Source: Escherichia coli
GTDB taxonomy: Bacteria; Pseudomonadota; Gammaproteobacteria; Enterobacterales; Enterobacteriaceae
NCBI RefSeq assembly: GCF_003334335.1
Contig: NZ_QOWQ01000013.1
Strand: one strand, 5' to 3'
DNA: 64,000 bases
Below the pieces are notes generated by a model. The model had not been told where the DNA came from. It did not search any database and worked only from the letters and a program-made list of their open reading frames with translations. Below are positions 29,810-51,721 of the stretch, piece by piece; position 1 is the first letter of the stretch; every line of letters starts with the position of its first letter. The position numbers and the translations under genes are program-made.

Positions 29810-29818
29810 CATTGTCGG

Positions 29819-31288: not shown

Positions 31289-31390
31289 AATTCACATCCT
31301 GCCAGTAGAGAGAGAATAAAGTAAGAGTTCCCGGAGTGCTGAATGTATTCAGCACTCAATTGCGGTCTATTTTTTTAATTCTTAAATTTA

Positions 31391-31786
31391 TTAGCGGGTC
31401 GCGTTATAACAGGTCACATCGACTTCAACTTTACAATCGACAACCAGATCAGCTACACAACAAATACGTGCAGGCGGATTCTCGCCAAAAAATTCTCTGA
31501 ATACTTTATTAAATGACTGGAAATAGCGGGCGTCGGTCAGGATCACTTTCACGTGAACCACATCCGCCAGGCTATAACCGGCTTCAGTCATGATGTCGAC
31601 ACAGTTTTGGATCGCCAGTCGTGACTGTTCAACGATACCGCCTTCTACCACTTCACCGTTTTTCATGGGGGTTTGCCCGGAGACGTACAGCCAGCCGCCC
31701 GCCTCAACCGCCCTGGCAAACGGCAAATGCTGCCCGCCAGTGCCTGTTCCACCTTCCGTACCGTAACGTTTAATACTCATATTCAC
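31391..31786 (-). CDS. RidA/YjgF-family reactive enamine/imine deaminase
   Basis: 131 aa with the conserved RidA C-terminal signature (PARICCVADL...VEVDV). Confidence 0.75.
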   Translation of the reverse strand: MNMSIKRYGTEGGTGTGGQHLPFARAVEAGGWLYVSGQTPMKNGEVVEGGIVEQSRLAIQNCVDIMTEAGYSLADVVHVKVILTDARYFQSFNKVFREFFGENPPARICCVADLVVDCKVEVDVTCYNATR

Positions 31787-31789
31787 TCC

Positions 31790-33241: not shown

Positions 33242-33432
33242 TCCATTTCTGCAATGGTGACAAGTTAACCATTTACAAGGACGAAAAACAGTGGAAAACT
33301 ACGCAAAACCCAGATGATTTTATGATACTTTTATTCATAAATAATAAGATAAATAAACTAAATATTTATATTTCATTTAGTTACAAATGATACTCACATC
33401 CGATACGGTGAAAAACTTAAAAGGTAAATGTT

Positions 33433-34653
33433 ATGAAATACCACTCAGAACCTCTGGTTCCCCATAAATCTGCCCTGATGCAAATGCCCGCAAATCTCCT
33501 TGCCGAAGATGTCTGTTTACCTGCCGCGATCATTAAAAAGCAGGCCCTGGAGAACAACATTACGTGGATGCAACGCTACGCTGACGCGCGCGGCGTTTCA
33601 CTGGCACCGCACGGTAAAACCACCATGACGCCGTGGATTTTTCAGGCGCAGCAGGCGGCTGGTGCCTGGGCAATAGGTGTCGGTAGCGCATGGCAGGCTG
33701 GTGCGGCAATGGCGAGCGGTATTCAGCGAGTGCTGATGGTTAACCAGCTGGTCGGCAAGGCGAATATGCAGTTGATTGCCCAGTTGCAACAACATTACCC
33801 GACGGTCGATTTTATCTGCTGTATCGACAGCATTGAGAACGCCCGCGCTTTGTCTGCCTTTTTTGCCAGTCAGCAACAGACACTGAACGTGATGATTGAA
33901 CTGGGTGTTCCCGGCGGGCGCTGTGGTTGCCGCTCAACGGATGCCGCACTGGCACTGGCTAAACAGGCAGCCCAATTACCGGGGTTACGCCTGCGGGGGC
34001 TTGAGTTATATGAAGGCGTTTTACACGGTGACGATCCACAACCGCAGGTAGAAGCTCTGCTGCGGGATGCCGCACAACTGGCCTGTGATATGGCAAATCT
34101 GGTTGATGGCGAGTTTATTCTCACCGGAGCAGGCACGGTCTGGTATGACGTGGTGTGCAATATCTGGCTGGCGGCAGAAAAGCCTGATAACTGCCGCATT
34201 GTTATTCGCCCTGGCTGCTACATCACTCACGACACCGGGATCTACGACGCGGCACAACAACAGTTGCTTGCCCGTGATCCTGTGGCCTGCGATCTGGCAG
34301 GCGATCTCACATCTGCGCTGGAACTGGTCGCCATGGTGCAATCGGTGCCGGAAGCTGATCGTGCGGTGGTAAATTTTGGTAAGCGTGATTGCGCCTTCGA
34401 CGCCGGACTGCCGCAACCAGTCGCCCACTACCGCAACGGCAAATCACTGGCATTTGATCCACAGGCGATTCGCAGTACAGGTATTATGGATCAGCACTGC
34501 ATGTTGCAACTGTCAGCTAATAGCGACGTGCAAGTGGGGGATATTCTGGTGTTTGGCACATCGCATCCGTGCCTGACCTTCGACAAATGGAAAACGTTGT
34601 TATTGACTGATGACGACTACAACGTACTGGCAGAATTAGACACTCTCTTCTAA
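33433..34653 (+). CDS. Alanine-racemase-fold (type III PLP) D-serine-dehydratase-like enzyme (DSD1 family)
   Basis: 406 aa; probable PLP lysine in APHGKTT near the N-terminus; fold-type III architecture with C-terminal beta domain. Confidence 0.7.
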   Translation: MKYHSEPLVPHKSALMQMPANLLAEDVCLPAAIIKKQALENNITWMQRYADARGVSLAPHGKTTMTPWIFQAQQAAGAWAIGVGSAWQAGAAMASGIQRVLMVNQLVGKANMQLIAQLQQHYPTVDFICCIDSIENARALSAFFASQQQTLNVMIELGVPGGRCGCRSTDAALALAKQAAQLPGLRLRGLELYEGVLHGDDPQPQVEALLRDAAQLACDMANLVDGEFILTGAGTVWYDVVCNIWLAAEKPDNCRIVIRPGCYITHDTGIYDAAQQQLLARDPVACDLAGDLTSALELVAMVQSVPEADRAVVNFGKRDCAFDAGLPQPVAHYRNGKSLAFDPQAIRSTGIMDQHCMLQLSANSDVQVGDILVFGTSHPCLTFDKWKTLLLTDDDYNVLAELDTLF

Positions 34654-34657
34654 GAAC

Positions 34658-34693
34658 GCCCCTTCGGTTAATTATCGAAGGGGCATTTTTATT
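34658..34693 (+). terminator. Rho-independent terminator after the DSD1-like gene
   Basis: gccccttcg-gttaattat-cgaaggggc hairpin followed by atttttatt. Confidence 0.7.
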
Positions 34694-34756
34694 GTGATCT
34701 CAATCACATATCCACCCGACGAATAATTCTTGCCCAACCGCTCACCGCCATTCCTG

Positions 34757-38336: not shown

Positions 38337-39251
38337 TCACTCAAAATAGTCCATATCCAGTTTCGGCACCTTCAACAAACGTGAAGAAACCCCTACTTCG
38401 TTTTCGATCATTAAGTGCACCAGGCGTTCCCCATCAACCAACACCATACCCTCAACGGATTGGGCAAAGTCACGCGCCTGAGAAGTAAATCCAGAAGTGG
38501 TAATAAACACCCCACGTTTCGCTTTTTGCCCAGCCAGTGCGCCGTAAAATGCCTGTAATTCTGGCCTGCCTACAGTATTCTGCCAACGTTTTGCCTGAAC
38601 ATAAACTTTCTCCAGGCCAAGTTTATCAAGCGATATCACACCATCGATGCCACCATCTCCAGTACCGCCAACACGCTGCAAATCATCACGGTGGCCGCCA
38701 TACCCCAGGCGATGCAAAACATCCAGAACAATGACTTCAAAGCGCGAAGGAGAAACCTGCAATAAGTTTTCCAGAGCCTCATCAGCCACCGCATCACGAA
38801 GCTCTTTTAGCGCCTGATCTAACCGATCGTCCGGGCTGCTCTTTGCAAGTTCTTCATGATCGGGAGAGTCGGCTTTCGGATCTAAATCGACGGCATCCGG
38901 CCGTGACTTAAGTTTGACATTCACAAAATCGAAGGCCAGATGGTTCGTCTCCTGCTCCGTCATTGGCTGGGGATGAGACGCAACCCAGTCAAAACCCGCA
39001 GGAGTCAGGCACCATTTGCCACGCGACAAACTTTGCGACAACCCGGCACGTTTTAAACGGTCATGCGCCCAGCCTGCACGATTTTTATAAACAAGTTGTC
39101 CGCTGGTAATGACTTTCGCTCGCTGGCTGTCATCCAGTCCTAATGCATCCGCGGCAGCCTCATGAACATCACGCGCGGCTGCACCTTCCGGTTTTGTCGC
39201 CAGATAACGCAGAACAGGTTCAATAAATTTGTCATAGGTTGGAACCGTCAT
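38337..39251 (-). CDS. mrr: Type IV methylation-dependent restriction endonuclease Mrr
   Basis: 304 aa MTVPTYDKFIEPVLRYLATKPEGAAARDVHEAAADALGL; N-terminal winged helix plus C-terminal PD-(D/E)xK region. Confidence 0.9.
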   Translation of the reverse strand: MTVPTYDKFIEPVLRYLATKPEGAAARDVHEAAADALGLDDSQRAKVITSGQLVYKNRAGWAHDRLKRAGLSQSLSRGKWCLTPAGFDWVASHPQPMTEQETNHLAFDFVNVKLKSRPDAVDLDPKADSPDHEELAKSSPDDRLDQALKELRDAVADEALENLLQVSPSRFEVIVLDVLHRLGYGGHRDDLQRVGGTGDGGIDGVISLDKLGLEKVYVQAKRWQNTVGRPELQAFYGALAGQKAKRGVFITTSGFTSQARDFAQSVEGMVLVDGERLVHLMIENEVGVSSRLLKVPKLDMDYFE

Positions 39252-39438
39252 AGTACATCCTTGCAGAATCAGGTAGATGTTTTTCGGCTACTATAACACT
39301 ACCAAAATAGGCGAACACGTTAGAAATGAGTCAGTTGCTGTGACCGTGGTCATTGCCCGGAAAGGTACAGAAAGCTAAGATGAGATGTTATGGGCCTTAA
39401 ATATTTGGACAGGCCCGCACAGCAATGGATTAATAACA

Positions 39439-42400
39439 ATGATGAATAAATCCAATTTTGAATTCCTGAAGGGCGTCAACGACTTCACTTATGCCATCGC
39501 CTGTGCGGCGGAAAATAACTACCCGGATGATCCCAACACGACGCTGATTAAAATGCGTATGTTTGGCGAAGCCACAGCGAAACATCTTGGTCTGTTACTC
39601 AACATCCCCCCTTGTGAGAATCAACACGATCTCCTGCGCGAACTCGGCAAAATCGCCTTCGTTGATGACAACATCCTCTCTGTATTCCACAAATTACGCC
39701 GCATTGGTAACCAGGCGGTGCACGAATATCATAACGATCTCGACGATGCCCAGATGTGTCTGCGGCTCGGGTTCCGCCTGGCTGTCTGGTACTACCGTCT
39801 GGTCACCAAAGATTATGACTTCCCGGTGCCGGTGTTTGTGTTGCCGGAACGTGGCAAAAACCTCTATTACCAGGAAGTGCTGACGCTAAAACAACAGCTT
39901 GAACAGCAGGCGCGAGAAAAAGCGCAGACTCAGGCAGAAGTCGAAGCGCAACAGCAGAAGCTGGTTGCCCTGAACGGCTATATCGCCATTCTGGAAGGCA
40001 AACAGCAGGAAACAGAAGCGCAAACCCAGGCTCGCCTTGCGGCGCTGGAAGCACAGCTTGCCGAGAAGAACGCGGAACTGGCAAAACAGACCGAACAGGA
40101 ACGTAAGGCTTACCACAAAGAAATTACCGATCAGGCCATCAAGCGCACACTCAACCTTAGCGAAGAAGAGAGTCGCTTCCTGATTGACGCGCAACTGCGT
40201 AAAGCAGGCTGGCAGGCCGATAGCAAAACCCTGCGCTTCTCCAAAGGCGCGCGCCCGGAACCCGGCGTCAATAAAGCCATTGCCGAATGGCCGACCGGGA
40301 AAGATGAAACGGGTAATCAGGGCTTTGCGGATTATGTGCTGTTTGTCGGCCTCAAGCCCATCGCGGTGGTAGAGGCGAAACGTAAAAATATCGACGTTCC
40401 CGGCAAGCTCAATGAGTCGTATCGCTACAGCAAATGCTTCGATAATGGCTTCCTGCGGGAAACCTTGCTTGAGCATTACTCGCCGGATGAAGTGCATGAA
40501 GCGGTGCCGGAGTATGAAACCAGCTGGCAGGACACCAGCGGCCAACAACGGTTTAAAATCCCCTTCTGCTACTCGACCAACGGGCGCGAATACCGCGCAG
40601 CAATGAAAACTAAAAGCGGCATCTGGTATCGCGACGTGCGTGATACCCGTAATATGTCGAAAGCCTTACCCGAGTGGCATCGCCCGGAAGAGCTGCTGGA
40701 AATGCTCGGCAGTGAACCGCAAAAACAGAATCAGTGGTTTGCCGATAACCCTGGCATGAGCGAGCTGGGCCTGCGTTATTATCAGGAAGATGCCGTCCGC
40801 GCGGTTGAAAAGGCAATCGTCAAGGGTCAACAAGAGATCCTGCTGGCGATGGCGACCGGTACCGGTAAAACCCGTACGGCAATCGCCATGATGTTCCGCC
40901 TGATCCAGTCCCAGCGTTTTAAACGCATTCTCTTCCTTGTCGACCGCCGTTCTCTTGGCGAGCAGGCGCTGGGGGCGTTTGAAGATACGCGTATTAACGG
41001 CGACACTTTCAACAGCATTTTCGACATTAAAGGGCTGACGGATAAATTCCCCGAAGACAGCACCAAAATTCACGTTGCCACCGTACAGTCGCTGGTGAAA
41101 CGCACCCTGCAATCAGATGAACCGATGCCGGTGGCCCGTTACGACTGTATCGTCGTCGATGAAGCGCATCGCGGCTATATTCTCGATAAAGAGCAGACCG
41201 AAGGCGAACTGCAGTTTCGCAGCCAGCTGGATTATGTCTCTGCCTACCGTCGCATTCTCGATCACTTCGATGCGGTAAAAATCGCCCTCACCGCCACCCC
41301 GGCGCTGCATACTGTGCAGATTTTCGGCGAGCCGGTTTACCGTTATACCTACCGTACCGCGGTTATCGACGGTTTTCTGATCGACCAGGATCCGCCTATT
41401 CAGATCATCACCCGCAACGCGCAGGAGGGGGTTTATCTCTCCAAAGGCGAGCAGGTAGAGCGCATCAGCCCGCAGGGAGAAGTGATCAACGACACCCTGG
41501 AAGACGATCAGGATTTTGAGGTCGCCGACTTTAACCGTGGCCTGGTGATCCCGGCGTTTAACCGCGCCGTCTGTAACGAACTCACCAATTATCTTGACCC
41601 GACCGGGTCACAAAAAACGCTGGTCTTCTGCGTCACTAATGCCCATGCCGATATGGTGGTGGAAGAGCTGCGTGCCGCGTTCAAGAAAAAGTATCCGCAA
41701 CTGGAGCACGACGCGATCATCAAGATCACCGGTGATGCCGATAAAGACGCGCGCAAAGTGCAGACCATGATCACCCGCTTCAATAAAGAGCGGTTGCCCA
41801 ATATCGTGGTGACCGTCGACCTGCTGACGACCGGCGTCGATATTCCGTCGATCTGTAATATCGTGTTCCTGCGTAAAGTACGCAGCCGCATTCTGTACGA
41901 ACAGATGAAAGGCCGCGCCACGCGCTTATGCCCGGAGGTGAATAAAACTAGCTTTAAGATTTTTGACTGTGTCGATATCTACAGCACGCTGGAGAGCGTC
42001 GACACCATGCGTCCGGTGGTGGTGCGCCCGAAGGTGGAACTGCAAACGCTGGTCAACGAAATTACCGATTCAGAAACCTATAAAATCACCGAAGCGGATG
42101 GCCGCAGTTTTGCCGAGCACAGCCATGAACAACTGGTGGCGAAGCTCCAGCGCATCATCGGCCTGGCCACGTTTAACCGTGACCGCAGCGAAACGATAGA
42201 TAAACAGGTGCGTCGTCTGGATGAGCTATGCCAGGACGCGGCGGGGGTGAACTTTAACGGCTTCGCCTCGCGTCTGCGGGAAAAAGGACCGCACTGGAGC
42301 GCCGAAGTCTTTAACAAACTGCCTGGCTTTATCGCCCGTCTGGAAAAGCTGAAAACCGATATCAACAATCTGAATGATGCGCCGATCTTCCTCGATATCG

Positions 42401-42951
42401 ACGATGAAGTGGTGAGTGTAAAATCGCTGTACGGTGATTACGACACACCGCAGGATTTCCTCGAAGCCTTTGACTCGCTGGTGCAACGTTCCCCGAACGC
42501 GCAACCGGCATTGCAGGCGGTGATCAATCGCCCGCGCGATCTCACCCGTAAAGGGCTGGTCGAGCTACAGGAGTGGTTTGACCGCCAGCACTTTGAGGAA
42601 TCTTCCCTGCGCAAAGCATGGAAAGAGACGCGCAATGAAGATATCGCCGCCCGGCTGATTGGTCATATTCGCCGCGCTGCGGTGGGCGATGCGCTGAAAC
42701 CGTTTGAGGAACGTGTCGATCACGCGCTGACGCGTATCAAGGGCGAAAACGACTGGAGCAGCGAGCAATTAAGCTGGCTCGATCGTTTAGCGCAGGCGCT
42801 GAAAGAGAAAGTGGTGCTCGACGACGATGTCTTCAAAACCGGCAACTTCCACCGTCGCGGCGGGAAGGCGATGCTGCAAAGAACCTTTGACGATAATCTC
42901 GATACCCTGCTGGGCAAATTCAGCGATTACATCTGGGACGAGCTCGCCTGA
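39439..42951 (+). CDS. hsdR: Type I restriction enzyme R subunit (EcoKI-like, family IA)
   Basis: 1170 aa from MMNKSNFEFLKGVNDFTYAIACAAENNYPDD; DEAD-box motifs (AMATGTGKT, VVDEAH). Confidence 0.95.
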   Translation: MMNKSNFEFLKGVNDFTYAIACAAENNYPDDPNTTLIKMRMFGEATAKHLGLLLNIPPCENQHDLLRELGKIAFVDDNILSVFHKLRRIGNQAVHEYHNDLDDAQMCLRLGFRLAVWYYRLVTKDYDFPVPVFVLPERGKNLYYQEVLTLKQQLEQQAREKAQTQAEVEAQQQKLVALNGYIAILEGKQQETEAQTQARLAALEAQLAEKNAELAKQTEQERKAYHKEITDQAIKRTLNLSEEESRFLIDAQLRKAGWQADSKTLRFSKGARPEPGVNKAIAEWPTGKDETGNQGFADYVLFVGLKPIAVVEAKRKNIDVPGKLNESYRYSKCFDNGFLRETLLEHYSPDEVHEAVPEYETSWQDTSGQQRFKIPFCYSTNGREYRAAMKTKSGIWYRDVRDTRNMSKALPEWHRPEELLEMLGSEPQKQNQWFADNPGMSELGLRYYQEDAVRAVEKAIVKGQQEILLAMATGTGKTRTAIAMMFRLIQSQRFKRILFLVDRRSLGEQALGAFEDTRINGDTFNSIFDIKGLTDKFPEDSTKIHVATVQSLVKRTLQSDEPMPVARYDCIVVDEAHRGYILDKEQTEGELQFRSQLDYVSAYRRILDHFDAVKIALTATPALHTVQIFGEPVYRYTYRTAVIDGFLIDQDPPIQIITRNAQEGVYLSKGEQVERISPQGEVINDTLEDDQDFEVADFNRGLVIPAFNRAVCNELTNYLDPTGSQKTLVFCVTNAHADMVVEELRAAFKKKYPQLEHDAIIKITGDADKDARKVQTMITRFNKERLPNIVVTVDLLTTGVDIPSICNIVFLRKVRSRILYEQMKGRATRLCPEVNKTSFKIFDCVDIYSTLESVDTMRPVVVRPKVELQTLVNEITDSETYKITEADGRSFAEHSHEQLVAKLQRIIGLATFNRDRSETIDKQVRRLDELCQDAAGVNFNGFASRLREKGPHWSAEVFNKLPGFIARLEKLKTDINNLNDAPIFLDIDDEVVSVKSLYGDYDTPQDFLEAFDSLVQRSPNAQPALQAVINRPRDLTRKGLVELQEWFDRQHFEESSLRKAWKETRNEDIAARLIGHIRRAAVGDALKPFEERVDHALTRIKGENDWSSEQLSWLDRLAQALKEKVVLDDDVFKTGNFHRRGGKAMLQRTFDDNLDTLLGKFSDYIWDELA

Positions 42952-43027
42952 CACGGTATCATTCCCGGCAATTTCTTCTTCTGCGGCCCCGAACATGCGG
43001 GCCGCTGCTTAATTTACGGAACTCACA

Positions 43028-44617
43028 ATGAACAATAACGATCTGGTCGCGAAGCTGTGGAAGCTGTGCGACAACCTGCGCGATGGCGGCGTTTCCTATC
43101 AAAACTATGTCAATGAACTCGCCTCGCTGCTGTTTTTGAAAATGTGTAAAGAGACCGGGCAGGAAGCGGAATACCTGCCGGAAGGCTACCGCTGGGATGA
43201 CCTGAAATCCCGCATCGGCCAGGAGCAGTTGCAGTTCTACCGTAACCTGCTGGTACATCTGGGCGCCGACAATCAAAAGCTGGTGCAGGCGGTGTTCCAG
43301 AACGTCAACACCACCATTACCCAGCCAAAACAGTTGACCGAACTGGTCAGCAATATGGATTCACTGGACTGGTACAACGGTGCGCACGGTAAGTCGCGCG
43401 ATGACTTCGGCGATATGTACGAAGGGTTGTTGCAGAAGAACGCGAACGAAACCAAGTCTGGCGCGGGCCAGTACTTCACCCCGCGTCCGCTGATTAAAAC
43501 CATTATTCATCTGCTGAAACCGCAGCCGCGTGAAGTAGTGCAGGACCCGGCAGCAGGTACAGCGGGCTTTTTGATTGAAGCCGACCGCTACGTTAAGTCG
43601 CAAACCAATGATCTGGACGACCTTGATGGCGACACGCAGGATTTCCAGATCCACCGCGCGTTTATCGGCCTCGAACTGGTGCCTGGCACCCGTCGTCTGG
43701 CGCTGATGAACTGCCTGCTGCACGATATTGAAGGCAACCTCGACCACGGCGGCGCAATCCGTCTGGGCAACACCCTGGGTAGCGATGGTGAAAACCTGCC
43801 AAAGGCGCATATTGTCGCCACTAACCCGCCGTTTGGCAGCGCCGCAGGCACCAACATTACCCGCACCTTTGTCCACCCGACCAGCAACAAACAGTTGTGC
43901 TTTATGCAGCATATTATCGAAACGCTGCATCCCGGCGGTCGTGCGGCGGTGGTGGTGCCGGATAACGTGCTGTTTGAAGGCGGCAAAGGCACCGACATCC
44001 GTCGTGACCTGATGGATAAGTGTCATCTGCACACCATTCTGCGTCTGCCGACCGGTATTTTTTACGCGCAGGGCGTGAAAACCAACGTGCTGTTCTTTAC
44101 CAAAGGGACGGTGGCAAATCCGCATCAGGATAAGAACTGTACTGATGACGTGTGGGTGTATGACCTGCGGACCAATATGCCGAGCTTCGGCAAGCGCACG
44201 CCGTTTACCGACGAGCATTTGCAGCCGTTTGAGCGCGTATATGGCGAAAACCCGCACGGCTTAAGCCCGCGCACGGAAGGGGAATGGAGTTTTAACGCCG
44301 AAGAGACGGAAGTTGCCGACAGCGAAGAGAACAAAAATACCGATCAGCATCTGGCTACCAGCCGCTGGCGCAAGTTCAGCCGCGAGTGGATCCGCACCGC
44401 GAAATCCGATTCGCTGGATATCTCCTGGTTAAAAGATAAAGACAGTATTGATGCTGACAGCCTGCCGGAGCCGGATGTATTAACGGCAGAAGCGATGGGC
44501 GAGCTGGTACAGGCATTGGGTGAACTGGATGCGCTGATGCGTGAACTGGGGGCGAGCGATGAGGCGGATGCGCAGCGTCAATTGCTGGAAGAAGCGTTTG
44601 GTGGGGTGAAGGAATGA
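43028..44617 (+). CDS. hsdM: Type I restriction-modification N6-adenine methyltransferase M subunit (EcoKI-like)
   Basis: 529 aa MNNNDLVAKLWKLCDNLRDGGVSYQNYVNELASLLFLKMC; NPPF catalytic motif (VATNPPFG). Confidence 0.95.
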   Translation: MNNNDLVAKLWKLCDNLRDGGVSYQNYVNELASLLFLKMCKETGQEAEYLPEGYRWDDLKSRIGQEQLQFYRNLLVHLGADNQKLVQAVFQNVNTTITQPKQLTELVSNMDSLDWYNGAHGKSRDDFGDMYEGLLQKNANETKSGAGQYFTPRPLIKTIIHLLKPQPREVVQDPAAGTAGFLIEADRYVKSQTNDLDDLDGDTQDFQIHRAFIGLELVPGTRRLALMNCLLHDIEGNLDHGGAIRLGNTLGSDGENLPKAHIVATNPPFGSAAGTNITRTFVHPTSNKQLCFMQHIIETLHPGGRAAVVVPDNVLFEGGKGTDIRRDLMDKCHLHTILRLPTGIFYAQGVKTNVLFFTKGTVANPHQDKNCTDDVWVYDLRTNMPSFGKRTPFTDEHLQPFERVYGENPHGLSPRTEGEWSFNAEETEVADSEENKNTDQHLATSRWRKFSREWIRTAKSDSLDISWLKDKDSIDADSLPEPDVLTAEAMGELVQALGELDALMRELGASDEADAQRQLLEEAFGGVKE

Positions 44618-45963
44618 GTGCGGGGAAATTGCCGGAGGGGTGGGTTGAAACCTACCTTTCTGAAATATGTAGTAAACCACAATATGGTTATACAACTAAG
44701 TCGAGCTTTACAGGTAATGTAAAATTTTTAAGAACTACAGATATTACTAAAGGTACTGTGGATTGGTCCACTGTACCTTATTGTTTGCAAAATCCTGATG
44801 ATATACTTAAATATCAGCTTCAAGATCGAGATATTGTTATATCCCGGGCTGGTTCCGTAGGTTTTAGTTTTTTAGTAAAAAACCCACCGAATAATGCTGT
44901 CTTTGCTTCGTACCTGATCAGATTCAAACCTTTTGATAATATTTCAGAGCTTTACTTGAAGCGTTTTTTAGAGTCCGGCAACTATTGGGTTCAGCTTGCC
45001 TCTATGTCGGCTGGAAATGCATTACAAAATGTAAATGCTCAAAAATTATCCACGCTTATAGTACCAATTCCTCCACTTGCCGAACAAAAAATCATCGCTG
45101 AAAAACTCGATACGCTGCTGGCGCAGGTAGAGAGCACCAAAGCACGTCTTGAGCAAATCCCACAAATCCTGAAACGTTTTCGTCAGGCGGTGCTATCTAG
45201 TGCTGTTAGCGGTAAGTTAATTGACAAAAGCTTCGAAAATAAATTAGAAAAGCTCAATTCGTTTGTATCTATAGATATTGGTAATGCGTTCAAAAGCTCA
45301 GAGTTTAGTGATGAAGGCGTTCCATTACTCCGAGGACAAAATATAGAACCCGGAGCATTACGTTGGGATGACACAAAAAAATTCCCAATAGATAAACTTC
45401 AAAAATATTCTCATTTATTTATTAATGAGGGCGATATTATATTAGCAATGGATCGCCCAATAATATCAAGCGGGTTAAAAATAGCTAAAGCCAAAAAAAG
45501 TGATCTTCCTTGCGTTCTGGTTCAACGAGTTGCCAGATTTAAAGATTTCGAAAATCTAATTCCTGACTATCTGTATTTGTTATTGAATGATGTGTCTTTT
45601 ATTAATTATATTCAACCAAATCAGACTGGTAGCGACATTCCGCATATCAGTGGAAAACAAATTTTAAACTTTGAGTGTAATGTCCCCTCTATCCCCGAAC
45701 AACGCGAAATCGTTCGCCGCGTCGAGCAACTCTTCGCCTACGCCGACACTATAGAAAAACAGGTTAACAACGCCTTAGCCCGCGTCAACAACCTGACGCA
45801 ATCCATCCTGGCAAAAGCGTTCCGTGGTGAGCTCACCGCCCAGTGGCGGGCCGAAAACCCGGAATTAATCAGCGGAGAAAACAGCGCCGCCGCGTTGCTG
45901 GAGAAAATCAAAGCTGAATGCGCAGCCAGCGGGGGTAAAAAAGCCTCGAGTAAAAAATCCTGA
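44614..45963 (+). CDS. hsdS: Type I R-M specificity subunit with EcoKI-type conserved framework but divergent target recognition domains
   Basis: 449 aa; conserved N-terminus (MSAGKLPEGWV), central (PIPPLAEQKIIAEKLDTLLAQV) and C-terminal (EIVRRVEQLFAYADTIEKQVNNALARV...) regions as in EcoKI HsdS from memory; the two intervening TRDs are AT-rich and different. ATGA start/stop overlap with hsdM. Confidence 0.9.
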   Translation: MSAGKLPEGWVETYLSEICSKPQYGYTTKSSFTGNVKFLRTTDITKGTVDWSTVPYCLQNPDDILKYQLQDRDIVISRAGSVGFSFLVKNPPNNAVFASYLIRFKPFDNISELYLKRFLESGNYWVQLASMSAGNALQNVNAQKLSTLIVPIPPLAEQKIIAEKLDTLLAQVESTKARLEQIPQILKRFRQAVLSSAVSGKLIDKSFENKLEKLNSFVSIDIGNAFKSSEFSDEGVPLLRGQNIEPGALRWDDTKKFPIDKLQKYSHLFINEGDIILAMDRPIISSGLKIAKAKKSDLPCVLVQRVARFKDFENLIPDYLYLLLNDVSFINYIQPNQTGSDIPHISGKQILNFECNVPSIPEQREIVRRVEQLFAYADTIEKQVNNALARVNNLTQSILAKAFRGELTAQWRAENPELISGENSAAALLEKIKAECAASGGKKASSKKS

Positions 45964-46113: not shown

Positions 46114-46139
46114 GTATTTAGCGCGGTGCGGATGTGCGC

Positions 46140-46220
46140 CAACACACCCGCACCGCTAATCACAATCACTATTTATAGGGAATAGCAGTTATGACTGACA
46201 CGCATTCTATTGCACAACCG
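46140..46220 (-). ncRNA. symR: Probable SymR antisense sRNA (type I antitoxin) overlapping the symE 5' end
   Basis: Placement from the known K-12 arrangement, where SymR is encoded antisense across the symE ribosome-binding site and start codon; boundaries not determinable from sequence alone. Confidence 0.35.
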
Positions 46221-46532
46221 TTCGAAGCAGAAGTCTCCCCGGCAAATAACCGTCAATTAACCGTGAGTTATGCGAGTCGCTACCCGGATTACAGCCGTAT
46301 TCCCGCCATCACCCTGAAAGGTCAGTGGCTGGAAACCGCCGGTTTTGCTACCGGCACGGCGGTAGATGTCAAAGTGATGGAAGGCTGTATTGTCCTCACC
46401 GCCCAACCACCTGCCGCCGAAGAGAGCGAACTGATGCAGTCACTGCGCCAGGTGTGCAAACTGTCGGCGCGTAAACAAAAGCAGGTGCAGGAATTTATTG
46501 AGGTGATTGCCGGTAAACGAAAAGTCGCCTGA
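46191..46532 (+). CDS. symE: SOS-induced toxin SymE (AbrB/MazE-fold endoribonuclease-like)
   Basis: 113 aa [48 protein letters not shown]. Confidence 0.9.
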
Positions 46533-46540
46533 TACATTGA

Positions 46541-46570
46541 CCCGGTAGCGCCAGTGCTACCGGGTATTAT
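46541..46570. terminator. Bidirectional terminator between convergent symE and the GmrSD-like gene
   Basis: cccggtagc-gccagt-gctaccggg hairpin followed by tattatt. Confidence 0.6.
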
Positions 46571-46578
46571 TCGCCACG

Positions 46579-48672
46579 TTATACCAACGCGCTCTCCATC
46601 TGTTTTTCAAATGCCTGACGGATTAATCCCATAATGTAAGGAAGTTGTGCGAGGTCGCTGAAACCAATTTCTACATCGCCATTGCCCCAGCGCCCAACAT
46701 TTGTCACATCTTTGGCAATACCTTTCGGATCGACCAGTTCATGAAACTGCATATTAAGCGACAATCGCAGTCGGCTTTTTTGCGGCACAACATCAACAAA
46801 GTTCGTTTCCGCTTTAAACGCAATATAGAGCTTCAATACTTCCTGCGTGATCCCTGCGTCCAGGCGCATAACTTCATCGCGAAGATGATCGAATAACTCC
46901 CGACTATGCGAACCATCAGCAAGAAAAGGAAAATCATTCAGGCTGTAATTGGTTTTGTTTTCAGGCTTCCCCCGATAAACAGCTAAAACCTCTTCAGGAA
47001 GAGCAGGCGCTTGCCAGACCTGAATTGCAAGCTCTGCCAGACGATCGGCTCGGGCGTGAATGGCGGCTTCATCCCATTTTTCGCACTGTCCAAGACCGAT
47101 ATTCAAATAGAGCGGGCTATGTTTAAAGCCGTCTTCAATATCGCGTTTTTCCGCGAAAGGTCTGTCACTGTAGCGGGAGTTATAGCGCGTTAATGTGAGA
47201 TTCCCCAACGTATGCAACAGTTCTTTATGAATGCGTTGCCAGTCACTTCCCAGCTCTTCACGCCATTTAGCCGACAAATTTTCGTTCTGCGGCATAATAT
47301 GTTCAATCGTAAACTCTTCCACGCGCTCTCTGCGTTTATCGTTTTCCAGTCGTCGTAACCAGTAACTGCGACTGCGGAAGTTATAGAGATCGCGAACTTT
47401 TAATTCCCGTTTAAATTCATCATCGTTGGGGAAACGACGATATGAAGGTAGATTCAGAAAATGTACCTGAATACTTTCCAGATAATTTTCTTTATTAATG
47501 ACCTTATAAAAAGTAGCAAACGTCTTGTTAAGAGAATTTGTCGGAATCGCACATACTGCACGGCGGAAAACATAAGATTCAATTAAACGAATTATGTTCA
47601 GGAAATCTTCTTGAGACAAAACGCCATTTTTATAGTCATGATAAAGCGCCAGTAAGAAAGGATACGCCACATCGACCTTTAACTCGCGCAAATCCTGAAA
47701 AGCCGTAGCAAGCGATTTGTCACTTTCTTTTCCCAATGCCATTGCACAGTAATACTCCGCGTAGATGTGAATATCTTCAACCAGCCGATCTACGCCTTTT
47801 TCAGCAACACTCTGGCTGCGGGCATGGAGTTTAAATGCCTCATAGACTTCATCTGTCCGAGGGATCTCCCCTGTTTTTACCGTCAGATAATGACGCATAA
47901 AACTGTCAAAATATTCGCTGTAACCTTGCTGACCAAACGCGACTTCCATTGGACGCCAGTGATCTTCATACAACCGGGTTTGATGCTCTGGTTCGAGGCC
48001 CATCAGAATAAAATTGCGCACCAGATCGGCCTGACTTAACGCCTTACCGGTGGAGTTCATACTTTCAAAAATCAGTTGCGGATTATCCTGACCACGATTA
48101 AGCGCCACATCGACAATTAATAATTTTGCTAACCCACGACATAAGGGAATCAAATCATCCCCGAGTTTGGCAATTTGTTCATCAAAGAAAGTAAAGTTTT
48201 CCATTATTCGATGGGAATAGTTTTCTGGCATTGGTCTTTGTTTTATTAACGCCAGCAAACTGTCTTTATCAGTCTCGGTCAGCAGTAATTTAAATCCTTT
48301 CTCGCCGGACTCATAAGGATTGAGTAAATAATAATTACGCAATTTCATTGCTGAAAAGCCATCAAAAACTTCGTCTTCGCCAAGATGACGCGATAAAGCC
48401 TCAATCAGCAACATTGCGGTCGTCAGCCTTTGTTGACCATCAATGACCAGTAACGGAGAAATACCAGAAACCTGATACAACCCCTGCTCAATATAAACAA
48501 CCGAACCGATAAAATGCGCTGATATATCGTCACGCTTTCCGGCACGAATGATGTCGTCCCAAAGTTGCCGACATTGTTGTTCTGTCCATGAATAAGTCCG
48601 TTGATAAATGGGAATAACAAACTGCTGCGAACGTTTTAAAAAATCGAGTAGGCGGGCTTCTGTAGCTTTCAT
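46579..48672 (-). CDS. DUF262-DUF1524 (GmrSD-like) putative modification-dependent type IV restriction nuclease with unassigned C-terminal extension
   Basis: 697 aa; N-terminal IPIYQRTYSW and LLVIDGQQRLTTAML (DUF262 DGQQR motif); EHIMPQN...LGNLTL (DUF1524 His-Me finger-like); about 140 further residues of unknown affinity; sits where I recall K-12 having mcrBC. Confidence 0.75.
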   Translation of the reverse strand: MKATEARLLDFLKRSQQFVIPIYQRTYSWTEQQCRQLWDDIIRAGKRDDISAHFIGSVVYIEQGLYQVSGISPLLVIDGQQRLTTAMLLIEALSRHLGEDEVFDGFSAMKLRNYYLLNPYESGEKGFKLLLTETDKDSLLALIKQRPMPENYSHRIMENFTFFDEQIAKLGDDLIPLCRGLAKLLIVDVALNRGQDNPQLIFESMNSTGKALSQADLVRNFILMGLEPEHQTRLYEDHWRPMEVAFGQQGYSEYFDSFMRHYLTVKTGEIPRTDEVYEAFKLHARSQSVAEKGVDRLVEDIHIYAEYYCAMALGKESDKSLATAFQDLRELKVDVAYPFLLALYHDYKNGVLSQEDFLNIIRLIESYVFRRAVCAIPTNSLNKTFATFYKVINKENYLESIQVHFLNLPSYRRFPNDDEFKRELKVRDLYNFRSRSYWLRRLENDKRRERVEEFTIEHIMPQNENLSAKWREELGSDWQRIHKELLHTLGNLTLTRYNSRYSDRPFAEKRDIEDGFKHSPLYLNIGLGQCEKWDEAAIHARADRLAELAIQVWQAPALPEEVLAVYRGKPENKTNYSLNDFPFLADGSHSRELFDHLRDEVMRLDAGITQEVLKLYIAFKAETNFVDVVPQKSRLRLSLNMQFHELVDPKGIAKDVTNVGRWGNGDVEIGFSDLAQLPYIMGLIRQAFEKQMESALV

Positions 48673-48768
48673 TCTGACGTCTTTCCGTGAAGCGATGATT
48701 TCGCAATAATAACCACTTCCTTGTGGAGGTTATAGAGAAATCCTGTTTATCCGCGACGAACTGCCCCC

Positions 48769-48933
48769 TCACTCCACATCCTCCCTGCGTAACCCAATAT
48801 CCCTCAACCGCTCATCACTCATCTGCTGTAACACTCGTCGGGTCTGCATTTGCCGCCGCCAAAGCCTCACCGCCTGCCAGAGTTGCACAAGTCCAATAAA
48901 CGGTGCTTTAGCTTTGTTTTCGTGAAATTCCAT
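48769..48933 (-). CDS. yjiS: DUF1127 small protein YjiS
   Basis: Hand-translated (below the track length cutoff): MEFHENKAKAPFIGLVQLWQAVRLWRRQMQTRRVLQQMSDERLRDIGLRREDVE, 54 aa; strong RBS (gaggagg) upstream; 96 bp upstream of the GmrSD-like gene on the same strand. Confidence 0.75.
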   Translation of the reverse strand: MEFHENKAKAPFIGLVQLWQAVRLWRRQMQTRRVLQQMSDERLRDIGLRREDVE

Positions 48934-49109: not shown

Positions 49110-50522
49110 ATGACGCGTTATCAACATCTGGCGACTCTACTTGCCGAGCGGATTGAGCAGGGGCTGTATCGTCACGGGGAGAAATTGCCGTCGGTGCGCA
49201 GCTTAAGTCAGGAGCACGGCGTCAGTATCAGCACCGTGCAGCAGGCGTACCAGACGCTGGAGACGATGAAGCTCATCACTCCGCAGCCGTGTTCGGGTTA
49301 TTTTGTCGCACAACGGAAAGCCCAGCCGCCAGTACCGCCAATGACCCGTCCGGTGCAGCGCCCGGTGGAAATTACCCAGTGGGATCAGGTGCTGGATATG
49401 CTGGAGGCGCATAGCGACAGTTCCATTGTTCCGTTAAGTAAAAGCACGCCGGATGTCGAAACGCCCAGCCTGAAACCGCTGTGGCGGGAGCTAAGCCGGG
49501 TGGTGCAGCATAATCTGCAAACCGTTCTCGGTTATGACTTGTTAGCCGGTCAGCGAGTGTTGCGAGAGCAGATTGCCCGCCTGATGCTCGACAGCGGCTC
49601 GGTAGTCACCGCCGATGACATCATCATTACCAGCGGCTGCCATAACTCGATGTCGCTGGCGTTAATGGCGGTGTGTAAACCGGGCGATATTGTCGCGGTC
49701 GAATCCCCCTGTTATTACGGTTCGATGCAGATGCTGCGTGGCATGGGCGTGAAAGTGATTGAAATCCCAACCGATCCAGAAACAGGCATCAGCGTTGAAG
49801 CGCTGGAACTGGCGCTGGAGCAGTGGCCGATTAAAGGCATCATTCTGGTGCCAAACTGTAATAATCCGCTGGGATTTATTATGCCGGACGCGCGCAAACG
49901 GGCCGTTCTCTCTCTCGCTCAACGTCATGATATTGTGATTTTTGAAGATGATGTCTACGGTGAACTGGCAACGGAGTATCCGCGCCCGCGGACCATTCAT
50001 TCCAGGGATATCGACGGGCGAGTGCTGCTGTGCGGCTCGTTCAGTAAAAGTATTGCACCTGGCCTGCGCGTGGGCTGGGTCGCACCGGGGCGCTATCACG
50101 ATAAACTGCTGCATATGAAATATGCCATCAGCAGCTTTAATGTGCCGTCCACGCAAATGGCGGCGGCAACGTTTGTGCTGGAAGGTCACTATCATCGCCA
50201 TATCCGGCGGATGCGGCAGATCTATCAGCGCAATCTGGCACTTTATACCTGCTGGATACGGGAATATTTTCCCTGCGAAATCTGTATTACGCGCCCGAAA
50301 GGCGGATTTTTACTGTGGATAGAATTGCCTGAACAGGTCGATATGGTCTGCGTCGCGCGGCAGCTGTGCCGCATGAAAATCCAGGTGGCGGCAGGCTCGA
50401 TTTTCTCGGCTTCCGGCAAATACCGTAATTGTCTGCGCACCAACTGCGCTTTGCCGCTCAGCGAAACCTATCGCGAAGCACTGAAGCAAATTGGCGAGGC
50501 CGTGTATCGGGCAATGGAATAA
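49110..50522 (+). CDS. yjiR: MocR-family regulator (GntR HTH fused to aminotransferase-like PLP domain)
   Basis: 470 aa; N-terminal GntR HTH (LPSVRSLSQEHGVSISTVQQAYQTLE), C-terminal fold-type I aminotransferase domain. Confidence 0.85.
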   Translation: MTRYQHLATLLAERIEQGLYRHGEKLPSVRSLSQEHGVSISTVQQAYQTLETMKLITPQPCSGYFVAQRKAQPPVPPMTRPVQRPVEITQWDQVLDMLEAHSDSSIVPLSKSTPDVETPSLKPLWRELSRVVQHNLQTVLGYDLLAGQRVLREQIARLMLDSGSVVTADDIIITSGCHNSMSLALMAVCKPGDIVAVESPCYYGSMQMLRGMGVKVIEIPTDPETGISVEALELALEQWPIKGIILVPNCNNPLGFIMPDARKRAVLSLAQRHDIVIFEDDVYGELATEYPRPRTIHSRDIDGRVLLCGSFSKSIAPGLRVGWVAPGRYHDKLLHMKYAISSFNVPSTQMAAATFVLEGHYHRHIRRMRQIYQRNLALYTCWIREYFPCEICITRPKGGFLLWIELPEQVDMVCVARQLCRMKIQVAAGSIFSASGKYRNCLRTNCALPLSETYREALKQIGEAVYRAME

Positions 50523-50764: not shown

Positions 50765-51721
50765 TTAGTACTCGATCCATGGATCGCGCTTGCTTTCAGG
50801 CAAGGGCTGATCTAATGCCTGCATTTGCTCTGCCGAAAGTCCGGTATATCGTTGTATCCATTCAGGATCCGCCCCATTCTGCAACAACAATCGGAGGAGG
50901 CTCTTTTCCCCTTCTTCTTTCCCTTCTTTCCTCCCCCTCTCCCTTCCCAACAGCCATCCATCATTATGAATTCGCTCTGCAATCGTCATTATTCGCTCCC
51001 TGTGTTGTGGCATTCGACGGATAAGTTCGCTGATAAACTCATTAAAACGCGCTTCATCGCCAGTCAGTAAAATGTAATTTAACAGCGCGGTTATCTGGCT
51101 GTCATTAGCGCACCCTGTAACCAGTAATACTGCCAGTTGATCAATAAGCCCCATTAGATCGCGCTGGCGAATATGCTTTTGGATCAACTCCAGCAGGGCG
51201 ACTCTGCGATGCTGCACAATCTCGTCGTCTGGCACGACAGTGACATCCACCAGCGGGAACGCTGCGGTATAAAGCTTCCGTGCGGTAGCCGGGTCGGCAA
51301 ATTCGTCCAGCCAGCACAAAGACCAGGGGTAAGGACTACGGCTACCGTGATAAAACAGCATCGGGATGACCAGCGGTAGCGGCCGGCGTTTATCATGCTC
51401 GATATGGCGCTGCATCACCGCCATGGAATATCGCATCAGGCGAAAGGCCATATGGATATCCTCGCGGCTCTGATGTTCAATCACCACATAAATATAGCCA
51501 TCTCCTTCGCGGGTCTTTACCGACCACAGAATATCGGAATGTAGCGCCCGCAATTTTTCATCGACAAAGCTGGCGTATTCCAGTTTTAAGCTGTCGAGAT
51601 CGCACAGTTCACGTAAATCTTTGGGTAAGTGGATCTCCATAAAATCCCGCGCGGTGTCAGGGTGGGTGAGAAAAGATTTAAATAATGCGTCATGCGGCGT
51701 GCTGGTCGTGAAGTTTGTCAT
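50765..51721 (-). CDS. rpnD: Rpn-family recombination-promoting nuclease (PD-(D/E)xK, transposase_31-like), apparently intact
   Basis: 318 aa [33 protein letters not shown]...; single uninterrupted frame; the gene is split as yjiP/yjiQ in K-12 (from memory). Confidence 0.7.

Follow-up and report, generated by a model that had tools for sequence, protein, structure and literature searches.

A three-domain GmrSD-family nuclease with a DUF5655 tail in the mcrBC slot of the Escherichia coli immigration control region

The immigration control region (ICR) of the Escherichia coli strain studied here encodes, between symE and yjiS, an intact 697-aa protein that is probably a functional single-chain GmrSD nuclease of a three-domain, DUF5655-containing subfamily and is predicted to serve as an NTP- and modification-dependent (Type IV) backup to Type I restriction. 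Its open reading frame (ORF) starts with ATG and occupies positions 46579 to 48672 on the minus strand of the window, by which we mean the whole 64,000-nucleotide stretch of DNA that was analyzed. The gene is already known at this spot in the ICR and is ordinary apart from its tail domain, the fold of which is newly assigned.

RESULTS

The ORF list and its translation confirmed the intact minus-strand frame that a sequence-only reading had placed between symE and yjiS/yjiR. Its Pfam E values and its stop-free length of 2.1 kb are far beyond chance, and we therefore regard the ORF as real. The flank gene symE (46191 to 46532, plus strand), recognized from its ORF and from the RefSeq annotation of collinear strains, is convergent with the nuclease gene, and 46 bp separate the two stop codons. 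Its antisense small RNA, symR, was found at 46120 to 46196 on the minus strand (Rfam, 94.3 bits; E = 1.9e-18). ORFs of a Type IA restriction-modification (R-M) system, namely, hsdR (1188 aa), hsdM (529 aa), and hsdS (449 aa), extend over positions 39385 to 45963 on the plus strand, with mrr (38337 to 39251, minus strand) just upstream of hsdR. On the opposite side lie yjiS, which encodes a DUF1127 protein of 54 aa when counted from the ATG chosen in the sequence-only reading (48769 to 48933, minus strand), and yjiR (49110 to 50522, plus strand). The hsdRMS region is collinear with that of the annotated strain NY1601 at 95 to 98% identity, the target-recognition regions of hsdS excepted. The ORFs and this collinear strain bore out that the nuclease gene adjoins Type IA hsdRMS, mrr, and symE. 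The rest of the window, from deo-prfC to iatD, is ordinary E. coli chromosome. Since the best full-length hit was only 97.9% identical, an origin of the window outside E. coli was suspected. It was rejected because the flanking housekeeping DNA is 99.4% identical to that of E. coli and because the exact 697-aa protein is on record from this species (EHW5729125.1, "DUF262 domain-containing protein").

Alignment with K-12 MG1655 by blastn showed that homology ends at window position 46528 and restarts at 48764. The variable cassette absent from K-12 thus spans 46529 to 48763 and takes in the leader of the nuclease gene minus its last 5 nt. Between the same flanks, K-12 carries yjiT, yjiV', mcrC, and mcrB, so that the nuclease fills a 2.2-kb symE-yjiS slot where K-12 has mcrBC-yjiV'-yjiT. 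Empty-site strains have neither the nuclease nor mcrBC there. Hence, the slot has three alternative fillings: the GmrSD cassette, the K-12 arrangement, and the empty site. Both blastn and this comparison of alleles support the earlier proposal that the nuclease occupies the ICR position of mcrBC. The novelty which that proposal implied for the gene at this locus did not stand, as He et al. 2015 (PMC4437046) had described a diverged GmrSD homologue replacing McrBC in the ICR and a 2025 review (PMC12707154) tabulated such loci, counting GmrSD in 12% of them. We found the nuclease gene in approximately 24% of complete E. coli genomes; near-full-length copies from E. coli numbered 1,288. It is reasonable to suppose that the Type IV specificity of this strain differs from that of McrBC. 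Concerning the locus, our results mainly confirm textbook ICR biology, in which restriction genes vary as cassettes, here with a GmrSD-type enzyme instead of McrBC. Strains with the GmrSD allele may restrict modified-base DNA differently from K-12, which matters for the choice of cloning hosts and for phage therapy.

The ATG of the nuclease gene follows the stop codon of yjiS after a gap of 96 bp (48673 to 48768), confirming that yjiS lies at this distance upstream on the same strand; the span 46579 to 48933, which had been singled out previously, comprises the nuclease ORF plus yjiS. A promoter and terminator scan of the 96-bp gap detected no terminator or consensus promoter above background. 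Co-transcription of the two genes, as suggested by the sequence-only reading, may occur in this strain. A link between yjiS and the nuclease was not supported. The small gene is a conserved flank outside the cassette, present in K-12 (upstream of yjiT) and kept in empty-site strains. In B2 strains that retain an intact nuclease gene, CFT073 and H22 among them, only 26 aa of yjiS are left. Based on this distribution, yjiS was rejected as a partner gene.

RefSeq splits the intact ORF into a 387-aa coding sequence and a "pseudo" N terminus in every sampled genome. Because the ORF contains no internal stop, this split is an artefact, and surveys based on protein annotation will count too few copies of the nuclease or get its size wrong. 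The pseudogene status suggested by the annotation was rejected: the frame is open in six of the eight other E. coli copies checked and in Escherichia albertii. Intact ORFs were present in the window, CFT073, 2013C-4538, ETEC O6:H16, H22, NY1601, SCPM-O-B-8794, and E. albertii, and 13 of 697 residues differ between the CFT073 and window proteins. Among intact copies, dN/dS relative to the window copy ranged from 0.06 to 0.11 at dS values of 0.08 to 0.19, indicating purifying selection. Independent 1-nt deletions were found in O157:H7 (nt 801) and strain H3 (nt 473), and other strains carry IS1 insertions or partial remnants of the gene. These frameshifts and insertions show that the gene is dispensable. 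Along with the leader devoid of a consensus promoter and the failure of RefSeq to annotate a single gene, such losses would agree with a cryptic or decaying passenger, that is, an ICR copy poorly expressed or unused in E. coli and kept by its linkage to the polymorphic region. We consider this explanation highly improbable, as it is opposed by the low dN/dS, by an ORF that is intact in all sampled lineages but two, and by the artefactual nature of the RefSeq split. The invariant residues of the family are also the window protein's own, a match that follows from the construction of the 39-sequence alignment.

Pfam searches located a DUF262/GmrSD_N ParB-like NTPase domain (PF03235; E = 9.4e-35) at residues 9 to 222 (48007 to 48648; this and all following domains on the minus strand) and a DUF1524/GmrSD_C His-Me finger (HNH-type) domain (PF07510; E = 1.5e-26) at residues 415 to 547 (47032 to 47430). 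The former contains the DGQQR motif (residues 78 to 82; 48427 to 48441) and the latter contains EHIMPQ (residues 457 to 462; 47287 to 47304), followed by GNLTL at residues 490 to 494 and by N498. They are joined by an all-helical linker (residues 223 to 414; 47431 to 48006), for which AlphaFold predicted helices over residues 228 to 406 with pLDDT values mostly between 77 and 96. The modeled His-Me finger has strands at residues 455 to 458 and 492 to 495 and a helix at residues 506 to 511. The full-length model is poor in DUF262, with pLDDT below 50 across much of residues 1 to 134 and 187 to 212. The protein thereby displays three of the features by which the GmrSD family is recognized: DUF262 with DGQQR, DUF1524 with (D/E)HxxP and downstream Asn residues, and a helical linker. 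A fourth, the Type IV activity of cleaving DNA with modified cytosines under NTP stimulation, is predicted for it. An alpha-helical linker of 200 to 400 residues between the domains was given as a GmrSD feature by Machnicka et al. 2015. An NCBIfam search of the protein assigned no family.

Conservation among homologues followed the same pattern. Residues D78, G79, Q80, Q81, and R82 do not vary among 39 homologues. In a set of 90 sequences made up of the query and 89 homologues, the conservation of the DGQQR residues is 97% or higher. E457, H458, P461, Q462, N491, and N498 are likewise conserved among homologues. All of the modules, including DUF5655, have a median identity of 62 to 68% to the window protein across the 89 homologues, and the helical linker (median, 68%) is as conserved as the catalytic domains. 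The only poorly conserved stretch is the hinge at residues 548 to 588 (46909 to 47031), with a median identity of 41% and a dip in pLDDT. Profile search and motif conservation therefore support the DUF262-DUF1524 architecture with DGQQR and EHIMPQ that had been recognized initially.

The approximately 140 C-terminal residues had been described as unassignable, which was refuted by profile search and structure prediction. Residues 589 to 690 (46603 to 46908) match Pfam DUF5655 (PF18899, COG3586; E = 4.4e-14) over model positions 11 to 108 of 109, and their predicted fold is of the YdhG/YjbR/frataxin-like alpha-beta-alpha type. The domain was modeled with confidence (pLDDT, 93.7). As modeled, it has the helix, the four- to five-stranded antiparallel sheet, and the long C-terminal helix that make up the "double-wing" of YdhG/YjbR (DUF1801/DUF419) proteins, and it is superposable on solved members of that group. 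No significant match was obtained when PDB sequences were searched with the profile of the tail. Among 1.84 billion representatives, 1472 DUF5655 relatives were recovered at E ≤ 1e-3. The domain is mildly acidic (pI 5.2), which weakens a DNA-binding reading of the double-wing-like fold.

The three-domain protein retains approximately 57 to 73% identity over a range of more than 10 phyla, archaea among them, and the family persists at approximately 60 to 70% identity in methanogens, actinobacteria, and other groups. We know of no glucosyl-hmC phages described for such hosts, and for this reason the target is not simply T-even DNA. At 29 of 41 informative species-level loci, hsdM, hsdS, or hsdR was found within 10 kb, and in 26 of the 29 on the same strand as the nuclease gene. 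With the nuclease gene written as [G], the operon order was typically MS[G]R or M[G]SR, often with ATGA overlaps. Loci devoid of Type I genes contained Type IIG/DrmMI-like methylases and Snf2 or other helicases instead. At 80 other loci, neighbors were searched for hsd genes only, which dominate; nine neighbors were scanned with PADLOC, and no Dnd or Ssp hits were obtained among these nine. Pairwise identity was 67% for the nuclease versus 29 to 30% for the adjacent HsdM, HsdR, and HsdS proteins, showing that the nuclease gene is not tied to a particular Type I family. In E. coli itself, the adjacent system is Type IA in some strains and Type IB in others.

Embedding and translational coupling of this kind resemble those of prrC inside EcoPrrI. 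The nuclease could then be a guardian that is silenced by contact with the host R-M complex, possibly via DUF5655, and freed by a phage anti-restriction protein. The acidic and conserved tail would be compatible with a protein-protein contact, and DUF5655 is also present in PDC-S18, the PDC label denoting defence candidates embedded in BREX, DISARM, or Type I systems. We rate such a role as very unlikely, however, since the partner Hsd proteins are unrelated between loci (approximately 30% identity) while the tail is conserved, the E. coli gene is convergent with the hsd operon, with symE in between and different Type I families alongside, and tested relatives such as HEC-06 and BrxU act alone. 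Seeming fusions to HsdM, HsdS, or HsdR in some close DUF5655 relatives, considered as Rosetta-stone evidence tying the tail to Type I complexes, were rejected as such. Protein P0218 combines an HsdM N-terminal part, a GmrSD_C fragment, and DUF5655 and is encoded alone among housekeeping genes, and P0206 and P0220 combine HsdS pieces with DUF5655 and adjoin an integrase or further hsdS fragments. All of these apparent Hsd-DUF5655 fusions are most plausibly what remained of embedded loci after deletions, which also speaks against the guardian role.

By sequence and by fold, the closest solved relative of the window protein is DndI (PDB 9jfl), matched by profile at E = 4e-16 over residues 10 to 556 and by Foldseek at 2e-12, with 18 to 19% identity in the Foldseek alignment. 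SspE profiles match the N-terminal domain too, covering only the first ~95 residues. DndI is not a Type IV enzyme, since unmodified DNA is what it restricts and a host mark holds it back; its proximity thus counts against the Type IV reading. By the same DndI/SspE-like mechanism, the ICR nuclease would scan DNA and nick unmarked foreign molecules, with m6A from the methyltransferase of the surrounding system stimulating the NTPase and releasing the enzyme from self DNA. It would act as a second effector of that methylation system rather than as a Type IV enzyme. Its location inside methylase-containing operons in most lineages, often with translational coupling to hsdM, hsdS, or hsdR, fits this scheme. 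Nevertheless, it appears unlikely. No dnd or ssp genes lie near the nuclease gene in the ICR of the window or of the annotated collinear strain, and the 67% identity of the nuclease holds between loci with methyltransferases that share only approximately 30% identity and differ in specificity. Furthermore, in E. coli it stands beside both Type IA and Type IB genes on the opposite strand, a minority of loci have no Type I genes nearby, and most coliphage DNA entering Dam+ E. coli is already m6A marked. In DndI, a tyrosine implicated in phosphorothioate sensing falls, in the alignment, on the Y of the "P.YQR" motif of DUF262, and this motif does not vary within the DUF5655 subfamily. As it is, to our knowledge, general to DUF262, it is not diagnostic.

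DISCUSSION

We favor a Type IV backup nuclease, for which the following mechanism is proposed by analogy with characterized relatives. The ParB-like DUF262 domain would bind and hydrolyze NTP via DGQQR and, together with the helical linker, would sense whether and how DNA is modified. Nicking or cleavage would be the task of the His-Me finger (E457/H458, N491, and N498), and DUF5655 may be an integral accessory module that binds DNA or a partner. Phage DNA with hypermodified bases that evade the adjacent Type I restriction would be the predicted target. The embedding of the gene in R-M operons is in favor of such a role, and there are precedents in BrxU, which is embedded in BREX, in TgvAB, which belongs to a Type I operon of Vibrio, and in a general survey of embedded genes. 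A backup role of this kind was also put forward for the ICR homologue by He et al. 2015 (PMC4437046).

What is still of scientific interest is the subfamily, not the ICR locus. It is unusual for a 700-aa defence nuclease to keep approximately 65% identity between bacteria and archaea and to reside inside unrelated R-M operons. One might imagine that DUF5655-GmrSD proteins are not free-standing Type IV enzymes but ultra-conserved, pan-prokaryotic "plug-in" effectors for methylation-based defence, inserting into operons that are unrelated to each other, whether Type I, Type IIG, or Hma-like. The tail would sense a generic feature, such as the methyl mark, the translocating complex, or inhibition by a phage anti-restriction protein. 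This idea, which we deem quite unlikely, would explain an identity of approximately 60 to 70% from E. coli to methanogens while other GmrSD proteins diversify against phage inhibitors.

Among known systems, the ICR homologue of He et al. (PMC4437046) is the same gene at the same locus, flanked by symE/hsdSMR/mrr and by the yji genes with McrBC absent, and shows no material difference. That study reported 733 aa for the APEC O1 protein, presumably from an upstream start, did not note DUF5655, and contained no biochemistry. A Nature Communications 2025 study of phage defence (PMC12373910) describes CLS_001 as the largest enterobacterial GmrSD cluster, with 116 members. One of these, AGB79837.1 (P0032), is 74% identical to the window protein and has the same three domains, and its gene adjoins hsdM and a yjiA-like GTPase gene. 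From this member and the many E. coli WP_000648xxx entries in the cluster, we infer that the window protein probably belongs to CLS_001. In that study, T2, T4, and T6 were used to challenge one representative per group for 15 enterobacterial GmrSD groups, of which CLS_001 was evidently one.

The prototype, Eco94GmrSD/CT596 GmrSD, shares the DUF262-linker-DUF1524 organization and the proposed NTP-stimulated HNH cleavage. It differs in being prophage borne and devoid of DUF5655, and its glc-hmC/hmC specificity and IPI* sensitivity are known. The ICR homologue APECO1_2080 is only 24% identical to it (He et al., PMC4437046). DndI and SspE are similar in combining a DGQQR NTPase with an HNH nickase. 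In contrast, they lack DUF5655, operate alongside phosphorothioation genes (dnd or ssp), and leave self DNA that bears the mark uncut. Like the predicted activity of the window protein, McrBC restriction is Type IV, NTP dependent, and modification dependent, and its genes take the same chromosomal position in K-12. However, McrBC belongs to an unrelated family with two subunits, the AAA+ GTPase McrB and the PD-(D/E)xK nuclease McrC. Pfam detected no AAA+ or PD-(D/E)xK domain in our ORF, and K-12 mcrBC had no blastn homology to the cassette. The McrBC cassette measures 7.5 kb, including yjiT and yjiV', versus 2.2 kb for the GmrSD cassette.

PADLOC matched the protein to Orf5 (PDLC02693) at E = 5e-223 and to the HEC-06 profiles PDLC04155 (1.7e-67, residues 8 to 555), PDLC04157 (7.5e-67), and PDLC04154 (6.1e-62), which together cover residues 2 to 555, with mREase_IV also among the nearest defence profiles. 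Its better match to Orf5 places the protein in a sister group of HEC-06. The latter is a validated anti-phage protein in which mutation of the DGQQR or EH motif abolishes defence (bioRxiv 10.1101/2024.01.29.577857). Both are single-chain and GmrSD-like with DGQQR and EHxxP, and HEC-06 was found embedded in a methylase-helicase system. In contrast, the HEC-06 profile has approximately 560 positions and ends before the DUF5655 tail, and HEC-06 is defined inside Hma (helicase-methylase-ATPase) systems, whereas the window nuclease lies beside a Type IA R-M system.

BrxU (GmrSD-ECOR21; PMC12373910) and TgvAB (PMC11014532) are GmrSD-like Type IV enzymes embedded in BREX and in a Vibrio Type I operon, respectively. 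A sequence search with the window protein did not recover BrxU at E ≤ 1. Both provide complementary defence against phages with modified DNA, as stated in PMC11014532 and PMC12373910. TgvAB is encoded by two genes, whereas the window protein is a single chain with an extra domain.

Domain architecture and integrity of the nuclease gene

The nuclease ORF occupies positions 46579 to 48672 on the minus strand, begins with ATG, and comprises 697 codons. The exact 697-aa protein sequence is on record from E. coli isolates. The sequence-only reading had extended the feature to 48933; the ORF stood, but the remainder of that span takes in a separate gene, yjiS. Two domains had been proposed, a DGQQR-containing DUF262 and an EHIMPQ-containing DUF1524, and a profile search recovered both at significant scores: GmrSD_N/DUF262 at residues 9 to 222 (Pfam E value, 9.4e-35) and GmrSD_C/DUF1524 at residues 415 to 547 (1.5e-26). 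The motifs, DGQQR at residues 78 to 82 and EHIMPQ at residues 457 to 462, did not vary among 39 aligned full-length homologues.

The approximately 140 C-terminal residues, previously regarded as unassignable, were assigned to DUF5655 (residues 589 to 690; Pfam E value, 4.4e-14), known in older annotation as COG3586, "predicted transport protein." This assigns a fold but no function. With a pI of 5.2, the domain is mildly acidic, and a simple DNA-binding role is therefore not favored. Among 89 homologues, median identity to the window protein was 62% for DUF5655 and 68% for the catalytic domains, and only the hinge at residues 548 to 588 varied freely (41%). Being nearly as conserved as the catalytic domains, DUF5655 is an integral component of the enzyme. 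Its AFDB occurrences are mainly at the C terminus of approximately 700-aa GmrSD proteins and in approximately 300-aa "predicted transport proteins"; the PADLOC candidate PDC-S18 ends in it too. In some proteins, namely, P0133 (470 aa), P0233 (628 aa), P0132, and P0195, DUF5655 occurs as two or three tandem copies and is the only domain recognized.

In every genome sampled, RefSeq/PGAP splits the ORF into two features, as exemplified by the window (46579 to 48672), by copies in loci L001 (9001 to 11094) and L096 (46626 to 48719), and by loci L103 to L105. The downstream feature begins at an internal start and is named a "GmrSD restriction endonuclease domain-containing protein" (387 aa). A "DUF262" fragment represents the N terminus and, in those intact copies that were inspected, bears a pseudogene flag; some 90 intervening codons carry no annotation. 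Direct translation of the CFT073 copy gave 697 open codons, with 13 residues differing from the window protein. The frame was also open in 2013C-4538, an ETEC O6:H16 strain, H22, NY1601, and SCPM-O-B-8794, and over 698 codons in E. albertii. The split is thus an annotation artifact, and surveys built on protein annotation will overlook the gene or give it the wrong size. Pseudogene status, as suggested by RefSeq, was rejected on account of these uninterrupted frames.

Inactivated copies do occur. The gene carries a 1-nt deletion at nt 801 in O157:H7 strain 4276 (locus L101) and another at nt 473, within an A-run, in strain H3 (L102); the two arose independently. Several further strains (among genome matches H95 and H100 to H105) harbor IS1 insertions, and 75- to 327-nt remnants of the 5' end lie beside yjiS in some strains that otherwise do not have the gene. 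For intact copies, dN/dS ranged from 0.06 to 0.11 at dS values of 0.08 to 0.19. The gene is thus kept by purifying selection and occasionally lost, the behavior to be expected for a defense gene. That it is a cryptic passenger is contradicted by these ratios and is very unlikely.

An exchangeable cassette in the immigration control region

The neighbors reported earlier, namely, a type I R-M system, Mrr, and SymE on one side and yjiS and yjiR on the other, were all located as described. They comprise mrr (38337 to 39251, minus strand), the Type IA genes hsdR, hsdM, and hsdS (39385 to 45963, plus strand), and symE (46191 to 46532, plus strand), which lies between the hsd genes and the nuclease. 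The symR small RNA (46120 to 46196, minus strand; Rfam, 94.3 bits) overlaps the 5' part of symE in antisense orientation, so the SymE/SymR module beside the cassette is complete. On the opposite side, yjiS (48769 to 48933) is separated from the nuclease ORF by 96 bp, with yjiR beyond it. The first 11.2 kb of the window is 99.4% identical to E. coli deo-prfC DNA, and the window represents ordinary E. coli chromosomal DNA.

By blastn, homology to K-12 MG1655 stops at position 46528, four bases short of the symE end, and restarts at 48764, five bases beyond the yjiS stop. In K-12, the interval between these two points holds yjiT, the pseudogene yjiV, mcrC, and mcrB, bearing out the proposed replacement of mcrBC. 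In other strains (genome matches H119 to H127), symE directly adjoins yjiS, leaving the site empty. Given shared breakpoints with alternative contents, the nuclease ORF constitutes a 2,235-bp cassette, and the slot in the immigration control region has at least three alleles, this one included. A match to the gene was detected in 1,404 of 5,426 complete E. coli genomes, covering at least 80% of it in 1,288.

The suggested cotranscription with yjiS found no support, since yjiS accompanies all three alleles and the nuclease ORF is intact in phylogroup-B2-type strains (CFT073, H22), in which only a 26-aa remnant of yjiS is left and yjiR is missing. yjiS is part of the flank and outside the cassette. 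Neither a terminator nor a consensus sigma-70 promoter was predicted in the 96-bp leader; read-through from yjiS is possible in this strain and cannot be required.

Other features of the region were also noted. The hsdR and hsdM genes are 95 to 98% identical to those of strain NY1601, whereas the target-recognition regions of hsdS (44645 to 45076 and 45192 to 45696) had no megablast match to it; the Type IA recognition sequence should therefore differ from that of NY1601. A 5.9-kb insertion between tsr and btsT (28807 to 34738), missing from the otherwise collinear NY1601, encodes an RpiR/HexR-like regulator, a sodium:solute symporter, a RidA-family protein, an amidohydrolase, and a protein with weak similarity to hydroxy-aspartate aldolase. 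This small islet of metabolic genes has no connection with the nuclease. Just past yjiR lies a gene for an Rpn-family recombination-promoting nuclease (RpnD/YjiP-like, 318 aa; 50765 to 51721, minus strand). yjiP has been linked to RecA-independent horizontal transfer (PMC4498929), and this gene may be relevant to cassette turnover. In other E. coli strains, a 77% identical second copy of the GmrSD-family nuclease (P0019, 699 aa; loci L010 to L012) sits at the opposite, yjiA/mrr end of the region, where the window has mrr; it adjoins yjiA, yjiX, and btsT, and a different hsdM-hsdS-hsdR operon diverges from it.

A conserved subfamily in unrelated methylation-based systems

The three-domain architecture proved to be common and strikingly uniform. 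A word-indexed search returned thousands of matches, the best 120 of which were almost all 696 to 702 aa long, with 70 to 98% identity and all three Pfam domains. Scanning one genome per species gave 80 loci (L016 to L095) at 57 to 98% identity. The hosts belong to Proteobacteria, Campylobacterota, Planctomycetota, Verrucomicrobiota (including Akkermansia), Actinomycetota, Chloroflexota, Acidobacteriota, Bacteroidota, Cyanobacteria, and a CPR lineage, joined by the methanogenic archaea Methanosaeta (70%) and Methanosarcina (65%). Over its whole length of approximately 700 aa, the E. coli protein is 57 to 73% identical to homologues from more than 10 phyla, methanogens included. Such uniformity is the reverse of the "virtually no similarity" described for other GmrSD subtypes.

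Context was counted for the 41 loci flanked on each side by 5 kb or more. hsdM, hsdS, or hsdR lay within 10 kb in 29 of them, on the same strand as the nuclease gene (G) in 26; hsdM-hsdS-G-hsdR (10 loci) and hsdM-G-hsdS-hsdR (8 loci) were the commonest orders, and ATGA stop/start overlaps were frequent in hsd-embedded loci. Where Type I genes were absent, neighbors matched defense proteins in four of five loci scanned, the matches in the fifth (L021) being weak. The matching neighbors were a Type IIG/DrmMI-like methylase with an Snf2 helicase, a Type IIG enzyme with an Hhe-like helicase, Mokosh-like proteins, and GajB-like proteins. Across 33 loci, median pairwise identity was 67% for the nuclease versus 30%, 30%, and 29% for the HsdM, HsdR, and HsdS proteins encoded beside it. 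Far better conserved than its hosts, the nuclease thus behaves like a constant cassette inserted into methylation-based systems that are themselves unrelated. It is quite unlikely that it serves these systems as a generic plug-in effector, sensing their state via DUF5655.

The closest solved relative is DndI rather than a Type IV enzyme (profile E value of 4e-16 over residues 10 to 556; Foldseek, 2e-12). DndI nicks unmarked DNA and is released from self DNA that bears phosphorothioate marks. A version of this logic in which a methyl mark set by the host operon spares self DNA and unmarked DNA is nicked would suit embedding in hsd operons. However, the nuclease is nearly constant beside unrelated methyltransferases of different specificities, it lies on the opposite strand to hsd in E. 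coli, and dnd and ssp genes are absent from its neighborhood; we consider this reading unlikely. A PrrC-like guardian role is very unlikely; the apparent HsdM/HsdS-DUF5655 fusions that would have supported it look like deletion remnants. These chimeric ORFs, P0218 (loci L097 and L098), P0206 (L099), and P0220 (L100), join the 5' part of hsdM or hsdS to the 3' end of the nuclease gene (a GmrSD_C fragment plus DUF5655). They were rejected as genuine fusions and read as scars of Type I-embedded loci, although they could pass for real ones in domain-architecture surveys.

Relation to known systems

The sequence-only reading was right in its observation and core interpretation, whereas its implied novelty did not hold: a GmrSD-type nuclease in the immigration control region is already in the literature. 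A 2025 EcoSal Plus review includes gmrSD homologues in its figure of the region and tabulates GmrSD in 12% of 9,040 loci, against 6% for McrBC. In a clustering of enterobacterial GmrSD proteins (PMC12373910), the largest cluster, CLS_001, includes AGB79837.1, and one representative of each of 15 groups was synthesized and tried on T-even phages. AGB79837.1 (P0032) is 74% identical to the window protein, has the same three domains, and adjoins hsdM. That GmrSD-like genes are embedded in Type I systems has likewise been published. In the literature searched, we found no account of the subfamily's DUF5655 tail or its fold, of its cross-domain conservation relative to host operons, or of the RefSeq split annotation. 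The remaining interest lies in the three-domain subfamily as a whole, not in this locus.

The nearest defense profiles were PADLOC "Orf5" (5e-223) and HEC-06 (1.7e-67), followed by the generic Type IV profile. Of these, HEC-06 has been validated by experiment as a single-gene defense, and its activity is lost upon DGQQR mutations (Q79A, R80A) or mutations of the EH in its nuclease motif (bioRxiv 10.1101/2024.01.29.577857). By analogy with HEC-06, Eco94GmrSD (PMC4437046), and BrxU, we infer an NTP-dependent enzyme in which DUF262 would bind and hydrolyze NTP and share in substrate discrimination, while the His-Me finger would do the cutting. Such a nuclease probably backs up a methylation-based system against modified DNA, the presumed substrate. 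Its genomic setting matches that of two embedded GmrSD-like enzymes, each of which attacks modified DNA that evades the methylation-based system around it: BrxU in BREX (PMC12373910) and TgvAB in a Vibrio Type I operon (PMC11014532).
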